This document shows, one piece after another, positions 13,598-24,760 of a stretch of DNA of 64,000 nt. The notes beneath the pieces were generated by a model. The model saw only the letters and a list, made by a program, of their open reading frames with translations, had not been told where the DNA came from and searched no databases. The stretch is from positions 1-64,000 of the forward strand of contig JAWAFD010000003.1 of assembly GCA_038890745.1 (NCBI GenBank), in the 5' to 3' direction. Within the stretch, counting starts at the first letter, position 1. Every line of letters starts with the position of its first letter. Source of the stretch: Candidatus Anstonellales archaeon (GTDB lineage: Archaea; Micrarchaeota; Micrarchaeia; Anstonellales; J096). The translations under genes and the position numbers were made by a program.

Positions 13598-13640
13598 CAG
13601 GCTTCAAGGGTTTTCAAGAGAAGGTTTCCTGTCAATTCCT
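13598..13640 (+). other. 5' arm of the 16S processing stem (pairs with 16440-16482)
   Basis: CAGGCTTCAAGG/CCTTGAAGCCTG and GAGAAGG/CCTTCTC complementary blocks flank the 16S. Confidence 0.8.
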
Positions 13641-13993
13641 TAATGGTTAATGCAGCGGACAACTGAATTCCAGTTGATCCTGCTGGAGGGTACTGCTATC
13701 GGAATCCGACTAAGGCATGCAAGTCTACGCCTGCACTTGTAGGCGTGGCAGACGGCTGAGTAACACGTGGTCAACCTCCCCTGAAGACCGGAACAACCTC
13801 GGGAAACTGAGGCTAATTCCGGATATGCCATCACTGCTGGAACGCTTGATGGTTGAAAAGGAGGGCGAATTGGAGCCTTTCCGCTTCAGGACGGGACCGC
13901 GGGGGATTAGGTTGTTGGCGGGGTAACGGCCCACCAAGCCGATAATCCCTAGGGGCCATGGGAGTGGGAGCCCCCAGAGGGACACTGAGACAA

Positions 13994-14038
13994 ACGCTGT
14001 TTGTTCAGGTTTTTCGGAAGGGACAAACAGCGGTCCAA
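13994..14038 (+). other. 16S intron 1, 45-nt hairpin intron (about E. coli position 330)
   Basis: Removal restores GACACTGAGACAAGGGTCC; cuts fall after the 2nd nt of the AAA and AAG bulges; CGCTGTTTGT/ACAAACAGCG stem. Confidence 0.88.
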
Positions 14039-14152
14039 GGGTCCCAGCCCTACGGGGTGCAGCAGCCGCGAAACCTCCGCAATGCGCGCAAGCGTGACGG
14101 GGGGATTCCGAGTGGTGTTGGCTCTTGCTAACACCTTTTGCCAAGTGTACAA

Positions 14153-14172
14153 ACACCTGTTCGGTGGTGTAA
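14153..14172 (+). other. 16S intron 2, 20-nt micro-intron in helix 17
   Basis: GTAC/GTGT helix with AAA bulges and CACC/GGTG stem; removal gives CCAAGTGTACAAAGCTTGG, the usual archaeal length. Confidence 0.7.
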
Positions 14173-14598
14173 AGCTTGGCGAATAAGGGTGTGGGCAAGA
14201 CCGGTGGCAGCCGCCGCGGTAACACCGGCGCCTCAAGTGGTACCCACGAATATTGGGTCTAAAGCGCCCGTAGCCGGCCGTGCAAGTCCACTGTGAAATG
14301 TTGGGGCTTAACTCCAACGCGTGCAGTGGATACTGCATGGCTTGGGAGCGGGGGAGGGTAGAGGTACGCCCGGGGTAGCGGTAAAATGCGTTGAGCCTGG
14401 GCGGACCCCCAGTGGCGAAGGCGTCTACCCAAAACGCGTCCGACGGTGAGGGGCGAAAGCTGGGGGAGCGAAGGGGATTAGATACCCCCGTAGTCCCAGC
14501 TGTAAATGATGCCAACTAGATGCGACTGCATCTTTGAGATGCAGTAGCGTCGTAGCGAAGGCGTTAAGTTGGCCACCTGGGGAGTACGATCGCAAGAT

Positions 14599-14641
<43 letters not shown>

Positions 14642-14642
14642 T

Positions 14643-15012
14643 TAACCATAAGGAATATAAACACAACCGACTACAACCATTCATGCCATCTATAAGCGGT
14701 GATGAAGAATCCTTCAAGAAACATTTCCGTATTTTGGCGGAAGAGAGCAACGGATTTAGAAAGTTAAACGCTAAACTACGTTGTAAATAAAAGGATTGTT
14801 ATTGAATGCACACAGGCTACAAATAAAATAAAATAAAAGCAGAGTCTTTGGGTTTCCGTATATCCAAACTAAAAAAAGTTAATCCTAGGATTATCGCAAT
14901 AGCTGTTATTCCTAGAGGGGTAAATAAGGGATTTTTGCGTCGGCTTGAGGATTTTGATCACATCGTTTTTGATGATGAGTTGAGTCGGTTGGAATTCCTT
15001 CTGGTTCCACAG
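14643..15012 (+). other. 16S intron 3, 370 nt (about E. coli position 947)
   Basis: BHB with GTGG/CCAC helix, ATT and AGG bulges, AACCA-AAGGAAT/ATTCCTT-TGGTT terminal stem; removal restores GGGGTGGATGCTACGGTTCAAT. Confidence 0.92.
14683..15012 (+). pseudogene. Frameshifted intron-encoded nuclease remnant related to 15358-16098
   Basis: Fragments NYVVNKRIVIECTQ and KAESLGFRISKLKKVNPRIIAIAVIP...FDHIVFDDELSRLEFL align by eye to the C-terminal half of the intron-5 ORF; two frameshifts. Confidence 0.7.
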
Positions 15013-15150
15013 GCTACGGTTCAATCGGATACAACGCCGAACATCTCACCAGAGGCGACGGCAGAATGAAGGTCAGGCTAAAGACCTTGCCCGACAAGCC
15101 GAGAGGTGTTGCATGGCCATCGTCAGCTCGTGGTGTGAACTGTCCGGTTA

Positions 15151-15195
15151 ACGCTGTTTGTTCAGGTTTTTCGGAGAGGACAAACAGCGGTCGAA
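15151..15195 (+). other. 16S intron 4, 45-nt hairpin intron (about E. coli position 1092), 42/45 identical to intron 1
   Basis: CGGT/GTCG helix with TAA and AAA bulges; removal restores TGTCCGGTTAAGTCCGGCAACGAGCG. Confidence 0.9.
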
Positions 15196-15307
15196 AGTCC
15201 GGCAACGAGCGAGACCCATGCCCTTAGTTGCTAACTCTATCTCCGGATAGGGTGCACTCTAAGGGGACTGCCCGCGTTAAGTGGGAGGAAGGAGTGGGCG
15301 ACGGTAG

Positions 15308-16103
15308 ATAGATGGCCTGGTCCGTAATCTTTTAAACACTAGCTCCGTAAATTTAATATGCCAAAAATGAAAATAACAAAAAGAGAGCTGCTTAATTTAC
15401 TAGAAAAAGTTCATAACATAACCGAAGAAGATCTATCTAATAATCCCAAGTACCTGCTTTTGCTACGATTGAATCTTGGTATGTCTCAAAATGAATTCGA
15501 GAAGTTTCTAGGAATAAGTAAAAATTCATACAAATATGAGACAGGAAAAATAAAACGCATGAGTAAAAGGACAGCAAAAAAATTTTTGGCAAGACTCCCA
15601 AACAGCATAGATAGGAAGAAAGTTATAAAGAGCTATAAACACTTCAAAGCAGAATCTAAAGGTTGGATGATGGTGCATTCTGATTCAGAGCAGGCGCTGA
15701 GAGGAAGACAAAAAGGGGCAATCAATTCGATGAAAAAACGTTGTACTATTCAAGAAAAAGAAATAACAAATTATCTCTTAAAAAAAGCAGTCCCTTTCAA
15801 AAGAAACTACGCACTAAACAATAGATGCGTTGTAGATTTCATAATTGAACATGCAAATGTTATAATCGAATGTAAGCGACTATCTACGCAAAATAGGCGG
15901 GAGCAAACGAAGAAAATACGCGAACTCGCATATCAAGGATACAAAGCTAAGTTTCTTAATCCAAAATTTGCCTTGATTGCACTAATTGAAACACAACTAC
16001 CTTTAACAGCTGCTGATTATGAAGAATTGATGGGTCCATTCAATAAAGTATTTAATCGGATGGACGAACTATTTTCTTTTTTGGACCAGACCATTTAACC
16101 GCA
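15308..16103 (+). mobile_element. 16S intron 5, 796-nt ORF-containing BHB intron (about E. coli position 1197)
   Basis: CGGT/ACCG helix, AGA and CAG bulges, TAGATGG-CTGGTCC/GGACCAG-CCATTTA stem; removal restores GACGGTAGGTCCGTATG. Confidence 0.93.
15358..16098 (+). CDS. Intron-encoded putative homing endonuclease (XRE-type HTH plus PD-(D/E)XK/Vsr-like domain)
   Basis: LRLNLGMSQNEFEKFLGISKNSYKYETG (HTH); TIQEKEI...VVDF...IIECK nuclease motif; no LAGLIDADG. Confidence 0.75.
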   Translation: MPKMKITKRELLNLLEKVHNITEEDLSNNPKYLLLLRLNLGMSQNEFEKFLGISKNSYKYETGKIKRMSKRTAKKFLARLPNSIDRKKVIKSYKHFKAESKGWMMVHSDSEQALRGRQKGAINSMKKRCTIQEKEITNYLLKKAVPFKRNYALNNRCVVDFIIEHANVIIECKRLSTQNRREQTKKIRELAYQGYKAKFLNPKFALIALIETQLPLTAADYEELMGPFNKVFNRMDELFSFLDQTI

Positions 16104-16211
16104 GTCCGTATGGCCCGAATCCTCTGGGCTACACGCGGCATACAATGGGCGGCACAACGGGTTGCCACTCCGAAAGGAGGAGCTAATCCCTGAAAACCGT
16201 CCCTTAGTTCA

Positions 16212-16250
<39 letters not shown>

Positions 16251-16284
16251 CTAGTAATCGCGGGTCACTATCCCGCGGTGAATG

Positions 16285-16316
<32 letters not shown>

Positions 16317-16505
16317 GTCACCCAAGTGTGGTTTCGGTGAGGCCCTCCTTTTTGGGAGGCTCGAACCGGGGCTACGCGAGGGGGGCTAAGTCGTAACAAG
16401 GTATCCGTAGGGGAACCTGCGGATAGATCACCTCCAAAAAGGAAATGCAAGGGGCCCTTCTCTGAATAAACCTTGAAGCCTGCCAAAATTTCTTTTTTTA
16501 TATTC

Positions 16506-18324: not shown

Positions 18325-19752
18325 CTATCCCTTAACAACAGCTATTGGCCTGAGTTTTGCAACAATATTACTTATCCCTGCCAGTTGTACGGCATTCACA
18401 ACATCATCAATATCCTTATACGCATCCGGTGCTTCTTCTGCAGCAACGCTCAATGTTGCTGGCTTAACTATTATTCCTCTCTCCCCAAGCTCCCTTACTA
18501 TCTGCTCCCCTCTGTGCCTTCTTATTGCCTCGTGCCTGCTCATCACCCTTCCTGCTCCATGGCATGTTGAACCAAAGCATACTTTCAGTCCTTTTGGGTT
18601 TCCAACAAGAACATAGCTTGCGGTTCCCATGCTCCCAGGAATGATTACTGGCTGCCCAATACCCATATACTTTTTTGGCAGTTCTTTTCTTCCTGCTGGG
18701 AACGCTCTCGTTGCCCCTTTTCTATGCACGACCAGATTCATCTTTTTTCCATCAACTTCGTGCTCCTCGAATTTTGCGATGTTGTGCGCAACATCATACA
18801 CCAATTTCATGCTATCCATTACATTCGAACCATAAACCTTTCCAAAACTCTCCCTCACCCAGTGCATAATCATCTGTCTGTTTGTGAATGCAAAATTCAC
18901 AGCACATTTCATAGCCTTTATGTAATCCTCCCCTTCCCTGCTCTTTACTGGTGCATACGCAAGCTCTGGGTCTGCCAATCTGATGTTGTTTTTTCTTGCC
19001 CATCCCATCACAACATTTATGTAATCGCTCGCAACCTGATGCCCAAAACCCCTAGAACCAGTATGGATCATTACAACGATCTGCCCTTCGTATAAACCAA
19101 ACGCTTTTGCAACCTCTGGAAGATGGATCTTTTCAACATACTGAATTTCTAAGAAATGGTTTCCTGCACCCAATGTTCCAAGCTGCGGCTTCCCCCTCTT
19201 TATTGCAACCTTACTAATTTTGGATGGGTCTGCTCCCTCCATCCTTCCATACTCCTCTATACTTTCTCTATCCTCTTCCCATCCATAATTGTTTTCAATC
19301 GCCCATTCTACCCCCCTTGTCAAAACCTCTCTTAACTCTTCTTCGCTAAGCCTTACCTTCCCCTCGCTTCCTACTCCGCTGGGAACATTCGTAAAAAGTG
19401 CCTGAACAATCTCCTTTATTTTTGGTTTCACATCCTTTTGTTCCATGTTTGTTAGAAGCAATCTTACACCGCAGTTAATATCATACCCTACCCCTCCTGG
19501 AGAAACTATTCCATCCTCTGCTGGGAACGCAGCCACGCCACCTATTGGAAACCCATACCCTTCATGCCCATCCGGCATGAGTAAGGCATGCTTCACTATT
19601 CCGGGCAATCCTGCTACATTCTTTAATTGCCATATCGTCCTATCCTTTTTCATCTGCTCCAGCATTTTTTCTGTTGCAAAGATTATCCCTGGGACCCTCA
19701 TCCCCTCTTCTTTAAACTCCCATGTAGCCTTTCCAATCTCCTTAAATTCCAT
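18325..19752 (-). CDS. rtcB: RtcB RNA-splicing ligase
   Basis: MPDGHEGYGFPIGG, GYDINCG, GAGNHFLE, VHRKGATR, HGAGR, EEAPDAYK. Confidence 0.97.
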   Translation of the reverse strand: MEFKEIGKATWEFKEEGMRVPGIIFATEKMLEQMKKDRTIWQLKNVAGLPGIVKHALLMPDGHEGYGFPIGGVAAFPAEDGIVSPGGVGYDINCGVRLLLTNMEQKDVKPKIKEIVQALFTNVPSGVGSEGKVRLSEEELREVLTRGVEWAIENNYGWEEDRESIEEYGRMEGADPSKISKVAIKRGKPQLGTLGAGNHFLEIQYVEKIHLPEVAKAFGLYEGQIVVMIHTGSRGFGHQVASDYINVVMGWARKNNIRLADPELAYAPVKSREGEDYIKAMKCAVNFAFTNRQMIMHWVRESFGKVYGSNVMDSMKLVYDVAHNIAKFEEHEVDGKKMNLVVHRKGATRAFPAGRKELPKKYMGIGQPVIIPGSMGTASYVLVGNPKGLKVCFGSTCHGAGRVMSRHEAIRRHRGEQIVRELGERGIIVKPATLSVAAEEAPDAYKDIDDVVNAVQLAGISNIVAKLRPIAVVKG

Positions 19753-20600: not shown

Positions 20601-22073
20601 CTATATGATTACTCTTACCCATCTATATGGGGTTTTTTCTATATCCTCTTTGCTTTTTTCTCCAAACTTCTCAAATCTTTTTAAAAGTTGAAAAACTAAA
20701 ACCTCATCAAAAGGTTTTAGACGAATTTCGCTTCTATTTACTTCTACCTTTTTTCCGATTATTTCAGATATATGCTGAGCTGTTGCTTCGTGACCAATCA
20801 CTGAAATAAATTTATTTTTCGCTAAAATATTTATTGCTTCTTCATCGCTTATCACTTTGAAGTATGCATTCCCGCTGGGATATTTGTTTATATCGAACAT
20901 ATTCAATGAAAAAGAAGATGCTAGATAAATGTTTTTTTCACGCTGTTTATTTTTTATTAGCTCTGCTATTCTTCTACATTCTTCCTCACATTTCTTTATA
21001 TATTTTTCGATCTTTTTGGGACTTATGTTTTGCGAGTTTTGGGTTTTCCTCCCTGTTCCGGCATGCGCTAAGTAATTTCTCCAATTTTGTATATTCCCAA
21101 ATATTCCCCTCTCCTTTGTTTCAAGTTTTCCTAATAACTTAGTAACCATCTCTCTATCATCTTTTTTGTTTCCGTCCATTCCTAATTCTTTACATATTTT
21201 CGTTATGTACGCTTCTTCTAGGAATATAACTGCATCACGCAGATGCTTACGTTTATTATGATATTCCGAAGTGAGCAACATCGCTTCTTCGTTGCTTTTT
21301 GCCTCCCCTTCCTTTTCCATAAATGGCTTAAATTCTTTTTTTAGTTTTTTGATTAACGCTGAGACTATATATTTTTGAATACCATCTAATCCTTCTAGGC
21401 TTTCATCTAATTCACCGATAGTTCCAGTTTCATAAATATTTTTCAAAAACTCACGTATCTCATTTATTTTCCCCATAAATTTTGTATTGCTCTTTCTAAA
21501 TAGTTCTTTTGCATCCTTGCTTATCTCTTCTATTTTTTGAGGGTCCAGCGTATTTACAGCCTCTTCCATATCCGCTACAATCTTGAATATTAAAGAGTAT
21601 TTTTCTAAATTGATAAGTTTACCTTTTTTTGTTTTTTCGTTAAAGAACTGATAAAAATATTCTATACTGGCTTCCTTCTCTTTTTCAATTATTTGCAATG
21701 CAAGTAGTACCAATGTTGTAGTATACTTAAATCCCGTAGTGGTATCAAAATGTATGGTGGATCTCTCTTCTTCTTTTATTTCCTTGCTAAGATTTACAAG
21801 AACATTTTGAAAAAATGCGTTCTGGTCTTCTATATTTTGTATTTTTATTTTTTTTATTTTTGAACTATCAATTCTTCCCTTTAAATTTTCTAATTCATTT
21901 TCAGCTTCTTCTGTTGGGATTATTGCAATTATTTTATCATAGCTAAACTCGTTCTTTAGTATTTCTAATGGTATCATTATATTTCTGTATTTTTTTCCCA
22001 TGTATTCGACTTCTTCTGCTTCTTTATAGTTTTTTCCAACATTCATTACATACATTCTCATACAAACCACCAT
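20601..22073 (-). CDS. csx1: Csx1-like CARF-HEPN RNase fused to a Crn2/AcrIII-1 (DUF1874) ring nuclease
   Basis: CARF motif HFDTTTGFK, HEPN RNYLAH, C-terminal SFSLNM...ISVIGHEATA...VNR...VFQL..R. Confidence 0.85.
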   Translation of the reverse strand: MVVCMRMYVMNVGKNYKEAEEVEYMGKKYRNIMIPLEILKNEFSYDKIIAIIPTEEAENELENLKGRIDSSKIKKIKIQNIEDQNAFFQNVLVNLSKEIKEEERSTIHFDTTTGFKYTTTLVLLALQIIEKEKEASIEYFYQFFNEKTKKGKLINLEKYSLIFKIVADMEEAVNTLDPQKIEEISKDAKELFRKSNTKFMGKINEIREFLKNIYETGTIGELDESLEGLDGIQKYIVSALIKKLKKEFKPFMEKEGEAKSNEEAMLLTSEYHNKRKHLRDAVIFLEEAYITKICKELGMDGNKKDDREMVTKLLGKLETKERGIFGNIQNWRNYLAHAGTGRKTQNSQNISPKKIEKYIKKCEEECRRIAELIKNKQREKNIYLASSFSLNMFDINKYPSGNAYFKVISDEEAINILAKNKFISVIGHEATAQHISEIIGKKVEVNRSEIRLKPFDEVLVFQLLKRFEKFGEKSKEDIEKTPYRWVRVII

Positions 22074-22074
22074 T

Positions 22075-22959
22075 TCAATATGATGTTATATTTACCCTTC
22101 CCATCCCAGCAGTTGTTAGCTTACCTATCCCTCTGTAATTAGAATATCCTGCCAACAACCCTAATAATTTTTTTGTTTCTTTGGGTAGCGAAGTTATAGA
22201 ATAAGTTATACTCCCCATTATCCCACTTATTCTCTCTTTTTTATTTCTTTTTTCTGACCATCGATCAATGGATGTATATTTTTTTATTTTGTTTACGCAA
22301 ATAGCAGCTTTTTCCAATTTTTTCTTAAAATCTACAAAGTTTATTTCTGGTTTATATGAATAGTAAAAGAAAGAAGTATTGTGAAAAGAACGTGCCATGG
22401 TCATTCCTATACTTTGAAGGGATGGCTCTGTGACCATTGAGTTCTCGAACCTTAATAGTGTGGGGGTTAAAAAATTAAAACGAATTCTTTCTTTTAATTG
22501 AATGCTTCTTACGAATTCTTCTTTAATATTGACTATTTTTGCACCTACAGACCCATAACCTTTTTTTCTACCTTTTCCTATACTATTTACTTTTTCAATA
22601 GCTTTTTTTAGGTGATTTAAAAAATTATTTCCTTTGCCGAATAACATAATTTTGAAATTTATCTCTTCATCAACAAAATATGTTTTCTTAGGTTCTAATG
22701 GAGGACTAATGGAGTAGGGTTTAGGTATCTGCATTCTATGTAATGGTTTTTTTACATCCCTTTGCTCTAGTTCGAATAAATATCCATAAGCACATCCTTC
22801 AATTCTATTACAACTTTTGCAGTTTTTATTTTTTCCCATAAGACAAGAATTTTCTCTCAACTTTTGGCCTATTGCACCTCTTATACTGAATCCTTTAAAC
22901 TCATTTAGATGTACTGGGGTTTTTGGAATAAATTTGGCTTCTATTACAGTTATCTTCAT
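22075..22959 (-). CDS. cas6: Cas6 crRNA-processing endoribonuclease
   Basis: C-terminal G-loop GIGKLTTAGMG; FLTPT. Confidence 0.9.
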   Translation of the reverse strand: MKITVIEAKFIPKTPVHLNEFKGFSIRGAIGQKLRENSCLMGKNKNCKSCNRIEGCAYGYLFELEQRDVKKPLHRMQIPKPYSISPPLEPKKTYFVDEEINFKIMLFGKGNNFLNHLKKAIEKVNSIGKGRKKGYGSVGAKIVNIKEEFVRSIQLKERIRFNFLTPTLLRFENSMVTEPSLQSIGMTMARSFHNTSFFYYSYKPEINFVDFKKKLEKAAICVNKIKKYTSIDRWSEKRNKKERISGIMGSITYSITSLPKETKKLLGLLAGYSNYRGIGKLTTAGMGRVNITSY

Positions 22960-23846
22960 TTTGGTTCAACCCTTACCCACCCAAATGGATAATAAATTTC
23001 ATTTATTTTTGTAATTTTTATTGTTGTTGAGTTTTCAGAAAATTTTCCTTTACCAATTCTTATTAGAATATTATTTTTGTTTTCCTGTTCTATTTTTTTG
23101 TAGAATTCCTCTAGTCCATTTAAAGCTTTAATTGTTTCACTACGCAGATCTATGATTTTGTTTTTAAAATTCCTTATCCAGTTTAATTCCCCTTTAATCA
23201 AATTGCTATTAATATCTTTAATTTTTTCTAATATTTTTTCGTTTTCTAAATATCGGACCTCTTTCTCATGATAAAATTCGTTTTTTATTATCTCTGCATT
23301 AATTTTCTTTCCTGGAGGGATTACCTCAATATAATTATATTTGATTAGCCTGTTTATTTTTTTCATGCTTAAACTATATATTCTGGATATAGTTAGACTG
23401 TCTTTTTCGAGCATTACATCTCTAAATATTATGTATGACAAGGTAGGTTTATTGCTGACTTTGTCTATGTGATGTACTGAGCCTGGGCCAGTGTAGGACA
23501 CGAAAGTGCCCTTTATAGATGATCCTGGAATATAAGGTTTGCCATCTATATTTATAAATTCATTTATTACAATATCATCTTTGTTAGCTATGTCTTCAAC
23601 TATTTTTATCCCACCACTACTTAAAGCATATTTTTCACTAATTTCTCTTAATTTTTTTATTTTTTCTTTGTGATCCTTTTTCTCTTTAAATTCTTTTATT
23701 ATTTTTTTTAGGTCATCTATTGTATAGCGATTTAGATCTACGTCAACTAAATAACCATTTTTTATTACGCAATCAAAAGGGTAATGTTTTTCACTACCAT
23801 TACCAATATGAATTGGAGACAATGTGTAGAACAAATATTCTTTCAT
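22956..23846 (-). CDS. csm5: Csm5 (Cas7-group RAMP)
   Basis: TLSPIHIGNG, PYIPGSSIKG, IRIGKG, PFGWV; operon position. Confidence 0.85.
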   Translation of the reverse strand: MKEYLFYTLSPIHIGNGSEKHYPFDCVIKNGYLVDVDLNRYTIDDLKKIIKEFKEKKDHKEKIKKLREISEKYALSSGGIKIVEDIANKDDIVINEFINIDGKPYIPGSSIKGTFVSYTGPGSVHHIDKVSNKPTLSYIIFRDVMLEKDSLTISRIYSLSMKKINRLIKYNYIEVIPPGKKINAEIIKNEFYHEKEVRYLENEKILEKIKDINSNLIKGELNWIRNFKNKIIDLRSETIKALNGLEEFYKKIEQENKNNILIRIGKGKFSENSTTIKITKINEIYYPFGWVRVEPK

Positions 23847-24760
23847 GATCTCACCTCTGGATCTATTTTAAATAAACTATCAAGATCGGCTTTAAGGTAT
23901 AGTTTTATTGTTCTTCCGTTGAAAATCTTTTCTTCACTATCTAACTTTATTATTTTGCCATTTGATGGTATATCACTAAAAATTCCGCCCGAAGGGTAGT
24001 ATAAGAATGAGATACCGGATCTTATTTTTTGATCGCCTTTTTCTGACAAGAAACTATTATATTTCTCTATACGAGAAAATATGAATTCACTGTTTTCCTC
24101 CGGGATGTAATCCGAAAGGTTTATGAAAAATTTTTCTTTTTTGGTGAGATATTCTTTATTGAATTCAGATAATATGTTCGACGGGTCTTTAAATACTAAT
24201 CTGCTTGCTCCAACTGATTTATCAGCCCCCATTCCATAAGATGACATTTTTAATAGAGCGTTCTCTATTATCTCTTTGTTTTTTTCTTCTACGGAGATTA
24301 AAAGAAAGGCATTTTTGACTATTGTTATATCATAATAAAACATATTCCTTTCCCTTATATAATTCCCTATTCTTCTTATCTTTTTTTGTTCTTCCTTTTT
24401 TTTGTTTGTGCGTTCTGTTAAACTATTCATTATCCTGTCTTTGATGAGGTCATCTGTTACCTCTTTGTCTGTGTCTTTTATCAGAACCTCTGTTTCTTTA
24501 AGCTCCTTTCTTAGTTTCTTTCTTATTTCTTTGTTTTGTATGAATCCCACTGCGTTTTGTAATCTTACACAGAATCCAAATTCAACATTTTTCATAATTC
24601 TACTAACTGCAAATTCTTTATCTTCTAAAAGTTTTTTTCCATCTTCCCCGAAAAAATCTATAGCAGTTTTCAGTATGGCTCCTGAAATTTGCATGCTTGT
24701 TAATAATCCTGACGAAGTGTTGTATCTTATTTCATCAAATTCTGCTTTATATATTGTCAA
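23843..24760 (-). CDS. csm4: Csm4 (Cas5-group RAMP)
   Basis: SMQISGAI, YGMGADKSVG, INLSDYIP; operon position. Confidence 0.8.
   Translation of the reverse strand: MTIYKAEFDEIRYNTSSGLLTSMQISGAILKTAIDFFGEDGKKLLEDKEFAVSRIMKNVEFGFCVRLQNAVGFIQNKEIRKKLRKELKETEVLIKDTDKEVTDDLIKDRIMNSLTERTNKKKEEQKKIRRIGNYIRERNMFYYDITIVKNAFLLISVEEKNKEIIENALLKMSSYGMGADKSVGASRLVFKDPSNILSEFNKEYLTKKEKFFINLSDYIPEENSEFIFSRIEKYNSFLSEKGDQKIRSGISFLYYPSGGIFSDIPSNGKIIKLDSEEKIFNGRTIKLYLKADLDSLFKIDPEVRS

Follow-up and report, generated by a model that had tools for sequence, protein, structure and literature searches.

An archaeal 16S rRNA BHB intron probably encodes an HTH-guided PD-(D/E)XK homing endonuclease that may repress its own promoter

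The window, that is, the whole stretch of 64,000 nucleotides that was analysed, contains a 16S rRNA gene that is interrupted by introns. The 23S gene is on another contig, C1, and thus the host 16S gene is unlinked from it. The 16S gene, the introns that are considered here and the two halves of the splice junction of the longest of them are as follows.

13667..16436, + strand: host archaeal 16S rRNA gene (Rfam RF01959, 1186 bits)
13994..14038, + strand: intron 1, a 45-nt hairpin with no ORF, not part of the nuclease element and absent in congeners
14643..15012, + strand: intron 3, a 370-nt BHB intron with a decayed paralogue (profile match, E 6e-6; 50% identity over 60 aa to L006)
15151..15195, + strand: intron 4, a 45-nt hairpin at about position 1092/1093, absent in congeners
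15302..15308, + strand: 5' half of the BHB, with the central helix strand CGGU and the bulge AG|A
15308..16103, + strand: BHB intron of 796 nt and 34% GC, assigned from its BHB geometry and the exact empty junction in congeners
16098..16104, + strand: 3' half of the BHB, with the central helix strand ACCG and the bulge CA|G

The junction of the 796-nt intron is a canonical BHB with a 4-bp helix (CGGU/ACCG), 3-nt bulges (AGA and CAG), an intron stem of 7 bp and an exon stem of 2 bp, and the intron is inserted after what we take to be about position 1197 of E. coli 16S rRNA. Excision at the bulges restores the conserved rRNA sequence GGCGACGGTAG|GTCCGTATGG. This empty site, which the original prediction had given as the intronless target, is carried exactly by two genomes of the same genus whose 16S identity is 97-98%. 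The canonical geometry, the RF01959 gene around it and the exact empty junction confirm that 15308-16103 is a real feature, a canonical BHB intron, as had been predicted, in the 16S gene of a Micrarchaeota-type archaeon. All of the 33 distinct introns at site 1197 (dereplicated, with that of the window included) keep 4/4 of the central helix, and compensatory changes are found in it by which the intron strand tracks the exon (CGCT/AGCG, CGAT/GTCG, and CGGC/GCCG). The host encodes the splicing machinery, namely, RtcB and two matches to PF01974 (EndA, splicing endonuclease domains). Some 1.9 kb separate the gene for the RtcB RNA ligase, at 18325-19752, from the 16S gene with its many introns. 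When the whole intron was folded its stability was not above that of shuffles (z -0.41), and in the intron RNA only the terminal stem and the BHB matter. A group I intron was considered and rejected: the Rfam matches in the window at gathering score were the 16S gene and two tRNAs only, and the ORF occupies 741 of the 796 nt of the intron.

The ORF within this intron is the following.

15358..16098, + strand: ORF of 246 aa, pI 9.9, with an XRE/Cro-type HTH at about aa 24-85, a helical linker and a PD-(D/E)XK domain at about aa 128-246

The original prediction was of a basic protein with an XRE-like HTH and a nuclease core, and both parts have held up. The QEKEI, VVDF, and IECK motifs are all there, and the predicted catalytic residues are E133, D160, E171, and K173. 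The Pfam matches of the protein itself were weak and below the cut-off (HTH_3 at 36-84, E 6e-4; DUF559 at 123-197, E 2e-3), and HTH_3 was matched in 12 of 16 family members with a best E of 2e-8. There was no Pfam match to LAGLIDADG in the 246-aa ORF at E up to 10, and the LAGLIDADG Pfam domain was absent from the 16 family members at E 0.01. A LAGLIDADG homing endonuclease was thus rejected as the identity of the ORF because it has neither the motif nor the domain. The AlphaFold model, made with 17 sequences (pLDDT 88.9, pTM 0.55), shows the N-domain as helical and the C-domain as alpha/beta, with a linker joining them. In the structure comparison the C-domain model matched Cdn1 (Z 11.0), Can2 (Z 10.9), and PspGI (Z 10.9; rmsd 2.1, 109 aligned), and its top eight matches were all nucleases or nuclease-like; its scores with Vsr (Z 8.2) and I-Bth0305I (Z 8.0) were level with those of response-regulator folds. 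The structural matches of the N-domain were nearly all XRE/Cro-type HTHs with middling scores (best Z 5.3), and its profile matches to MBF1 and the 434 repressor were at E 2e-4 to 1e-3. Foldseek gave no match at E 0.001 for either model and was weak for the N-domain, and there was no LAGLIDADG chain among the matches listed. A single-sequence search of the PDB with the 246-aa protein gave nothing meaningful.

Residue conservation was taken from 54 family proteins. Excluded from this set were four site-1197 introns whose ORF is broken or does not start with ATG, along with one fragment and one row that lacks an ATG. E133 and D160 are invariant (54/54) and E171 is found in 50/54, while K173 is found in 29/29 at site 1197 and in 39/54 overall, with T in its place in 8/54 paralogues. 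The HTH anchor residues R37 and E61 are found in 53/54 and 54/54, respectively. The alignment shows E171-C-K173 and no conserved His or Asp downstream of it. The modelled fold and these residues support the assignment of the protein to the PD-(D/E)XK superfamily with a predicted active site of the canonical D...ExK type. In 37 of 40 close pairs (>62% identity) dN/dS was 0.09-0.23, the other three being saturated. The residues of the HTH recognition helix are fixed inside a site class and different between classes.

A protein search found 16 relatives with 38-64% identity, among which there were no nuclease-family names beyond the automatic labels 'very-short-patch-repair/XRE'. All 42 loci of close relatives, 16 from genomes and 26 from metagenomes, adjoin the identical 16S site, in keeping with the rRNA-intron context that was expected of homologues; the search patterns were derived from this subfamily, 35 of the loci have both flanks and seven are cut by contig ends, and several are redundant (L043, from a genome of the same class, is the same locus as L001). 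Among 401 genomes of the phylum, nine carry an intron at site 1197 and 141 are empty by the exact pattern, an occupancy of about 6%; in the remaining genomes the site is unassembled or divergent from the pattern. The region is assembled in 16 of 18 other genomes of the same family and it is empty in 16/16. ORF-less introns of 27-39 nt are found at site 1197 in three other loci, and decayed copies were also seen at this site.

Paralogues are found in introns at about eight further 16S positions, namely, 122, 262, ~487, 643, 891, 915, 930/931, and 1348 on a reference scale on which site 1197 is 1181. In the phylum that contains the Aenigmatarchaeota the broad profile matches 31 of 371 genomes, and the 27 new loci there (L117-L143) comprise 18 in 16S and nine with no rRNA nearby, some with repeated HTH domains. 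Free-standing relatives of the Aenigmatarchaeota type that lie outside rRNA are L115, L125, L133, L135-L139, L141, and L142; in several of these the HTH unit is present two to four times or the nuclease unit twice. It is possible that they are the source or an offshoot of the intron family. One of them, L136, adjoins a tRNA-Ile gene. No family ORF was found in a 23S gene among the loci mapped to that of the host (best loci, 1.5 kb flanks), and none of the 66 pattern matches in IMG/VR was a viral relative. The nearest cluster in the ESM Atlas is archaeal with 113 members (score 0.91), which is a lead only. The protein tree groups by site (support of 100/99 for 1197, 99/96 for 1348, 98/88 for 947, and 98/96 for 891). 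Identities of the proteins and of the host 16S correlate (Spearman 0.41, 276 pairs of 24 loci), and one row, L047, is discordant between the protein tree and the host. The AU test for transfer across phyla does not reject a clade of the proteins from Micrarchaeia hosts (p 0.24) and so does not show such transfer; a single discordant row is insufficient to reject the host-congruent grouping. Thus a fixed intron site with empty alleles in close relatives, clades that follow the site, purifying selection and decayed copies are all found here, and these are among the marks of a homing endonuclease. The record labels of L008, L011, L015, and L004 are doubtful or at odds with the 16S; two archaeal 16S contigs among these are in bacterial bins, and L008 clusters with 16S of the Aenigmatarchaeota type.

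Intron 3 of the window, which is presumably at about 16S position 947, had been regarded as kin to the element at 15308-16103, and the profile match and the 50% identity to L006 given above bear this out. L006 is an intact paralogue at the same site. The ORF remnant in intron 3 is about half the length of intact copies and has stops and frame changes, and judged by its sequence intron 3 belongs to the site-947 class as a decayed paralogue.

Upstream of the ATG in the 796-nt intron there are the following features.

15319..15326, + strand: target-like word 1, GGTCCGTA, a predicted operator, at the position expected of a BRE, 3 nt upstream of the TATA box
15330..15337, + strand: TATA-like box TTTTAAAC of a predicted internal leaderless promoter, at the host spacing peak
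15342..15349, + strand: target-like word 2, GCTCCGTA, a 7/8 match and predicted operator, 16 nt before the ATG and 23 nt after word 1

The hexamer TTTAAA is at 15331-15336, 27-22 nt upstream of the ATG, and intron 3 has TATAAA at 14656-14661 at the same spacing from its ATG at 14683; both boxes had been pointed out in the original prediction and both are in the sequence. The CAC that it had noted after them does follow the box in both of these introns, but in view of the family's leaders it was dismissed as a feature of the family. TATA-type hexamers of the host genome, counted upstream of 504 first-in-operon ORFs, are most frequent at -30 to -27, with counts of 34, 57, 54, and 24 at these four positions and mostly 2-18 elsewhere. 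The box in the intron begins at -27 and a Shine-Dalgarno-like word is absent, and this fits the leaderless promoter that had been predicted. A similar box, by the pattern of our script, is found in 30 of 33 site-1197 leaders. At site 891 (L126, L127, L128, and L132) the first ATG of three of the four introns comes 14-16 nt after the intron start, which leaves no room for an internal promoter, and it is possible that in this class the excised intron RNA is translated.

The empty junction reads TAG|GTCCGTA, and GGTCNGTA is the part of the empty target that spans it. In the leader of the window the order is GGTCCGTA, TTTTAAAC, GCTCCGTA, and then the ATG. Two copies of GGTCNGTA at >=7/8 were found in 32 of 33 site-1197 leaders as against 15 of 6600 shuffles, a count that relies on manually assigned start codons in seven rows and on a motif picked after inspection. 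Since the leaders are related such counts overstate their independence, and the mimic is independently supported by two site classes only. In 27 leaders both copies precede the start at a spacing of 21-25 bp, mostly on either side of the TATA box, and in six related leaders of the Aenigmatarchaeota type the spacing is 19 bp and the pair straddles the ATG, one copy lying inside codons. The base of the word that is free to vary corresponds to the one that varies in the exon. Word 1 is partly within the terminal RNA stem of the intron. Word 2 is outside this stem, and its T, G, and T are kept in 27/27 and its C and A in 26/27 while the neighbouring bases vary.

An unsupervised test was also carried out in which every 7- and 8-mer of 16S (about 1507 k-mers) was scored against the leaders. 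At site 1197 the top k-mer was the junction word (31 leaders, z 7.0-8.2) and at site 1348 it was GCGGTGA at +4 (8 leaders with z 4.4; at 8 nt it shares first place), a word that is present there as an inverted repeat below the TATA box. As good a score is reached by about 3% of 45-nt windows at each of the two sites. The mimic was not significant at site 947 (rank 26 and 43) or at site 891 (rank 2 and 6), and in four control classes whose ORFs were judged LAGLIDADG-like by eye, of 3-6 leaders each, the ranks were 10-102. Two Aenigmatarchaeota members of site 1348, L121 and L123, have kept an operator-like CGGTGA though their own exon differs. By eye, L127 and L129 at site 947 have GGTTYAA-like words of the 3' exon as an inverted pair around the start codon, in a class for which the test was not significant. 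Thus at sites 1197 and 1348 a sequence that resembles the homing site appears to overlap the promoter of the gene itself, and the target words around the TATA box suggest an autorepression like that of I-TevI. The insertion alters, at the 3' junction, two of the eight informative bases of TNGGTCNGTA (in the window there is G at -3 and A at -1). On their own these eight bases are found at 13 places in the host genome, compared with 21 +/- 14 for permuted words, and so no depletion of the target word is shown there; since so short a word is present 13 times, cleavage must need extra specificity.

Based on these results we propose the following course of events. The intron would be removed from the pre-rRNA at its BHB by the host splicing endonuclease and the RtcB ligase, and the internal TATA box would give rise to a leaderless mRNA. 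At the empty junction the XRE-type HTH of the protein would recognise a sequence of approximately TNG|GTCNGTA that spans it, and a nearby cut would be made by the nuclease domain, probably as a dimer; the empty site has a GAC-N5-GTC pseudo-dyad whose centre is 3 bp before the insertion point. In homing, recombinational repair from the filled allele copies the intron, and repair off the intron-bearing allele would in this way copy the intron into the empty one. The filled allele would be protected because T(-3) and G(-1) of the word are lost on insertion. The protein would also bind both words around the TATA box and block the initiation of transcription, as I-TevI does, and since the leader words are without the left half of the site, binding there would be without cutting. 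Taken as a whole, we think it probable that the gene in this BHB intron encodes an HTH-guided PD-(D/E)XK homing endonuclease that spreads the intron and represses its own promoter. Of its parts, that the 246-aa protein is a homing nuclease is predicted with high confidence, and autorepression through the leader words is a fairly likely reading of them. It is likely that this is a new family of homing endonucleases. The spread over about nine 16S sites, the distant free-standing relatives and the two target-like words around the TATA box go beyond the original prediction, and we offer a wider scheme for them tentatively, as something that may or may not be so: a modular DPANN family, recruited from free-standing XRE-nuclease genes, would have invaded about nine 16S sites by changes in the HTH recognition helix, and after each retargeting the intron's own promoter would have been turned into an operator bearing a copy of the new target.

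I-PorI and I-ApeI are LAGLIDADG enzymes. I-DmoI has been named as a LAGLIDADG-type enzyme of archaeal BHB introns (PMC3384342), and Jay and Inskeep (2015) have described 13 archaeal 16S intron loci with LAGLIDADG genes, position ~1197 not being among them (PMC4496867). In other surveys, 39 archaeal group I introns had only LAGLIDADG Pfam matches (Nawrocki et al., PMC6125680) and a survey of CPR had mostly LAGLIDADG and GIY-YIG domains (PMC11270868). Like the LAGLIDADG-bearing BHB introns of 16S, the introns of this family have BHB splicing, lengths of 700-850 nt, conserved rRNA sites and predicted homing, and they are accompanied by short hairpin introns and decayed remnants (PMC4496867). They differ in that the enzyme in the window is of another nuclease fold with an added HTH and in that the hosts are DPANN, whereas those of the LAGLIDADG introns described in PMC4496867 are Thermoproteales. 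The words 'promoter' and 'TATA' had no matches in the available portion of PMC4496867, which to that extent does not mention an internal promoter with target-like words. A search of titles and abstracts did not find the family, and such ORFs could be tabulated in supplements.

PD-(D/E)xK homing enzymes are described in cyanobacteria and EDxHD enzymes in phage (PMC3384342). I-Ssp6803I, the cyanobacterial enzyme, has the canonical PD-(D/E)xK catalytic motif as our protein is predicted to have (PMC3384342), but it is a single-domain tetramer in which the nuclease fold itself binds DNA, whereas the protein in the window has an added HTH and an archaeal host. I-Ssp6803I was not among the PDB sequence matches of the window protein at E up to 1. 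The EDxHD family is defined by a His base (PMC3239194; I-Bth0305I, PDB 3r3p). Like the window protein, I-Bth0305I is intron-encoded, has an N-terminal DNA-binding part followed by a C-terminal nuclease of the PD-(D/E)XK fold, and has a pseudo-palindromic target, that of the window protein being a predicted one. However, the window family retains D...ExK and is found in archaeal BHB rRNA introns, whereas the EDxHD enzymes are found in phage group I introns and inteins. The motif speaks against membership in EDxHD, E171-C-K173 being followed by no conserved His or Asp. As for the leader words, an operator of I-TevI has been described in the T4 td intron, where a partial copy of the homing site that is without the cleavage determinant overlaps the promoter of the nuclease gene, and in this the predicted arrangement in the window is similar (PMC2988022). 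The differences are that I-TevI, which is of the GIY-YIG type, has one operator of 20 nt at a phage late promoter whereas in the window two words of 8-10 bp flank an archaeal TATA box, and that repression has been demonstrated for I-TevI whereas for the window intron it is predicted from sequence.

Four other explanations were weighed against an autorepressing homing endonuclease. It is unlikely, though worth keeping in mind, that the protein is a homing nuclease and the leader words are not operators; they would then be relics of a target duplication at the birth of the intron, RNA structure, or the site of a host factor. The partial pairing of word 1 in the terminal stem, the lack of a significant mimic at sites 947 and 891 and the mismatch between exon and word in L121 and L123 agree with this. 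Word 2, however, is outside the stem and has its T, G, and T kept in 27/27 and its C and A in 26/27 among varying neighbours, the spacing of 21-25 bp is held, the pair straddles the ATG in the six Aenigmatarchaeota-type leaders with one copy inside codons, and a different target, that of site 1348, is tracked by a different word. If the ORF coded instead for a domesticated DNA- or RNA-binding helper, either a maturase or a regulator, with vertical inheritance and frequent loss, then it would fit that host and protein distances correlate and that monophyly by host is not rejected (AU p 0.24), but we regard this as quite improbable given that the catalytic residues E133 and D160 are invariant, that occupancy is about 6% with empty congeners and that ORF-less introns persist at site 1197, from which splicing appears to be independent of the protein.

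The canonical D...ExK, which lacks the conserved His or Asp of the EDxHD motif, the scores of PspGI, Cdn1, and Can2, which are about 3 Z units higher, and the lack of a viral relative in the 66 IMG/VR pattern matches make it very improbable that the protein is a diverged member of the EDxHD (I-Bth0305I, Vsr-like) family, although each of the two fold searches brought up I-Bth0305I (Foldseek prob 0.99, E 0.03; VIA Z 8.0), there is the weak DUF559 match, and the order of the domains, DNA-binding and then nuclease, is the same. Hardly any weight is given to a restriction- or addiction-type nuclease that merely hitch-hikes in introns. Its closest folds are indeed those of restriction and CRISPR-ancillary nucleases and it has distant free-standing relatives, but a 796-nt intron is too small for a methylase or a partner gene, the HTH sequence tracks the insertion site and the leader copies the insertion-site word.

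Archaeal rRNA introns have been described as carriers of LAGLIDADG genes (PMC4496867). With a second, unrelated nuclease family at some nine 16S sites of two DPANN phyla, homing endonucleases would gain a lineage, and BHB introns would prove capable of being mobilised by nucleases that were captured independently. If the wider scheme is true, it would mean autorepression by a homing endonuclease in archaea and a natural, readable code between HTH residues and DNA words. The target site, the operator copy and the recognition helix together would give exact predictions of binding and cleavage and a natural data set on target change, and the small two-domain protein may serve as a retargetable nuclease. 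As introns lengthen or interrupt 16S genes, they may also bias amplicon surveys of DPANN; amplicon bias from 16S introns has been reported for Thermoproteales (PMC4496867).

Some further observations were made on the rRNA genes and the window. Introns 1 and 4 are identical at 42/45 nt and are at unrelated 16S sites. Two more are in the 23S gene, at C1 185793-185837 and in the region of ~185186-185232: a third 45-nt copy (39/45, the changes in its stem being compensatory) and a fourth that shares the loop. These likenesses in sequence suggest that short introns are copied between rRNA sites. At ~14150-14170 there is a 20-nt insert that is in both congeners, is absent from other family members and is not a canonical BHB; it may be a helix extension or a relaxed-BHB mini-intron. 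Complementary stretches, read from the sequence, lie on either side of the 16S gene at ~13600-13650 and 16445-16480 and resemble the BHB processing stem that an unlinked 16S precursor would have. The introns at site ~1093 in L001, L040, L054, L055, and L058 are of 500-570 nt with ORFs of 150-175 aa, which are possibly of a very divergent, LAGLIDADG-like type. The host 23S gene (L144, C1 184353-189465) is 5.1 kb long and has three ORFs of 175-215 aa that are LAGLIDADG-like by eye. Lastly, the window has at 20601-24760 a cluster of low-GC ORFs that by eye is type III CRISPR-like, with Csx1-, Cas6-, and Csm-like members.
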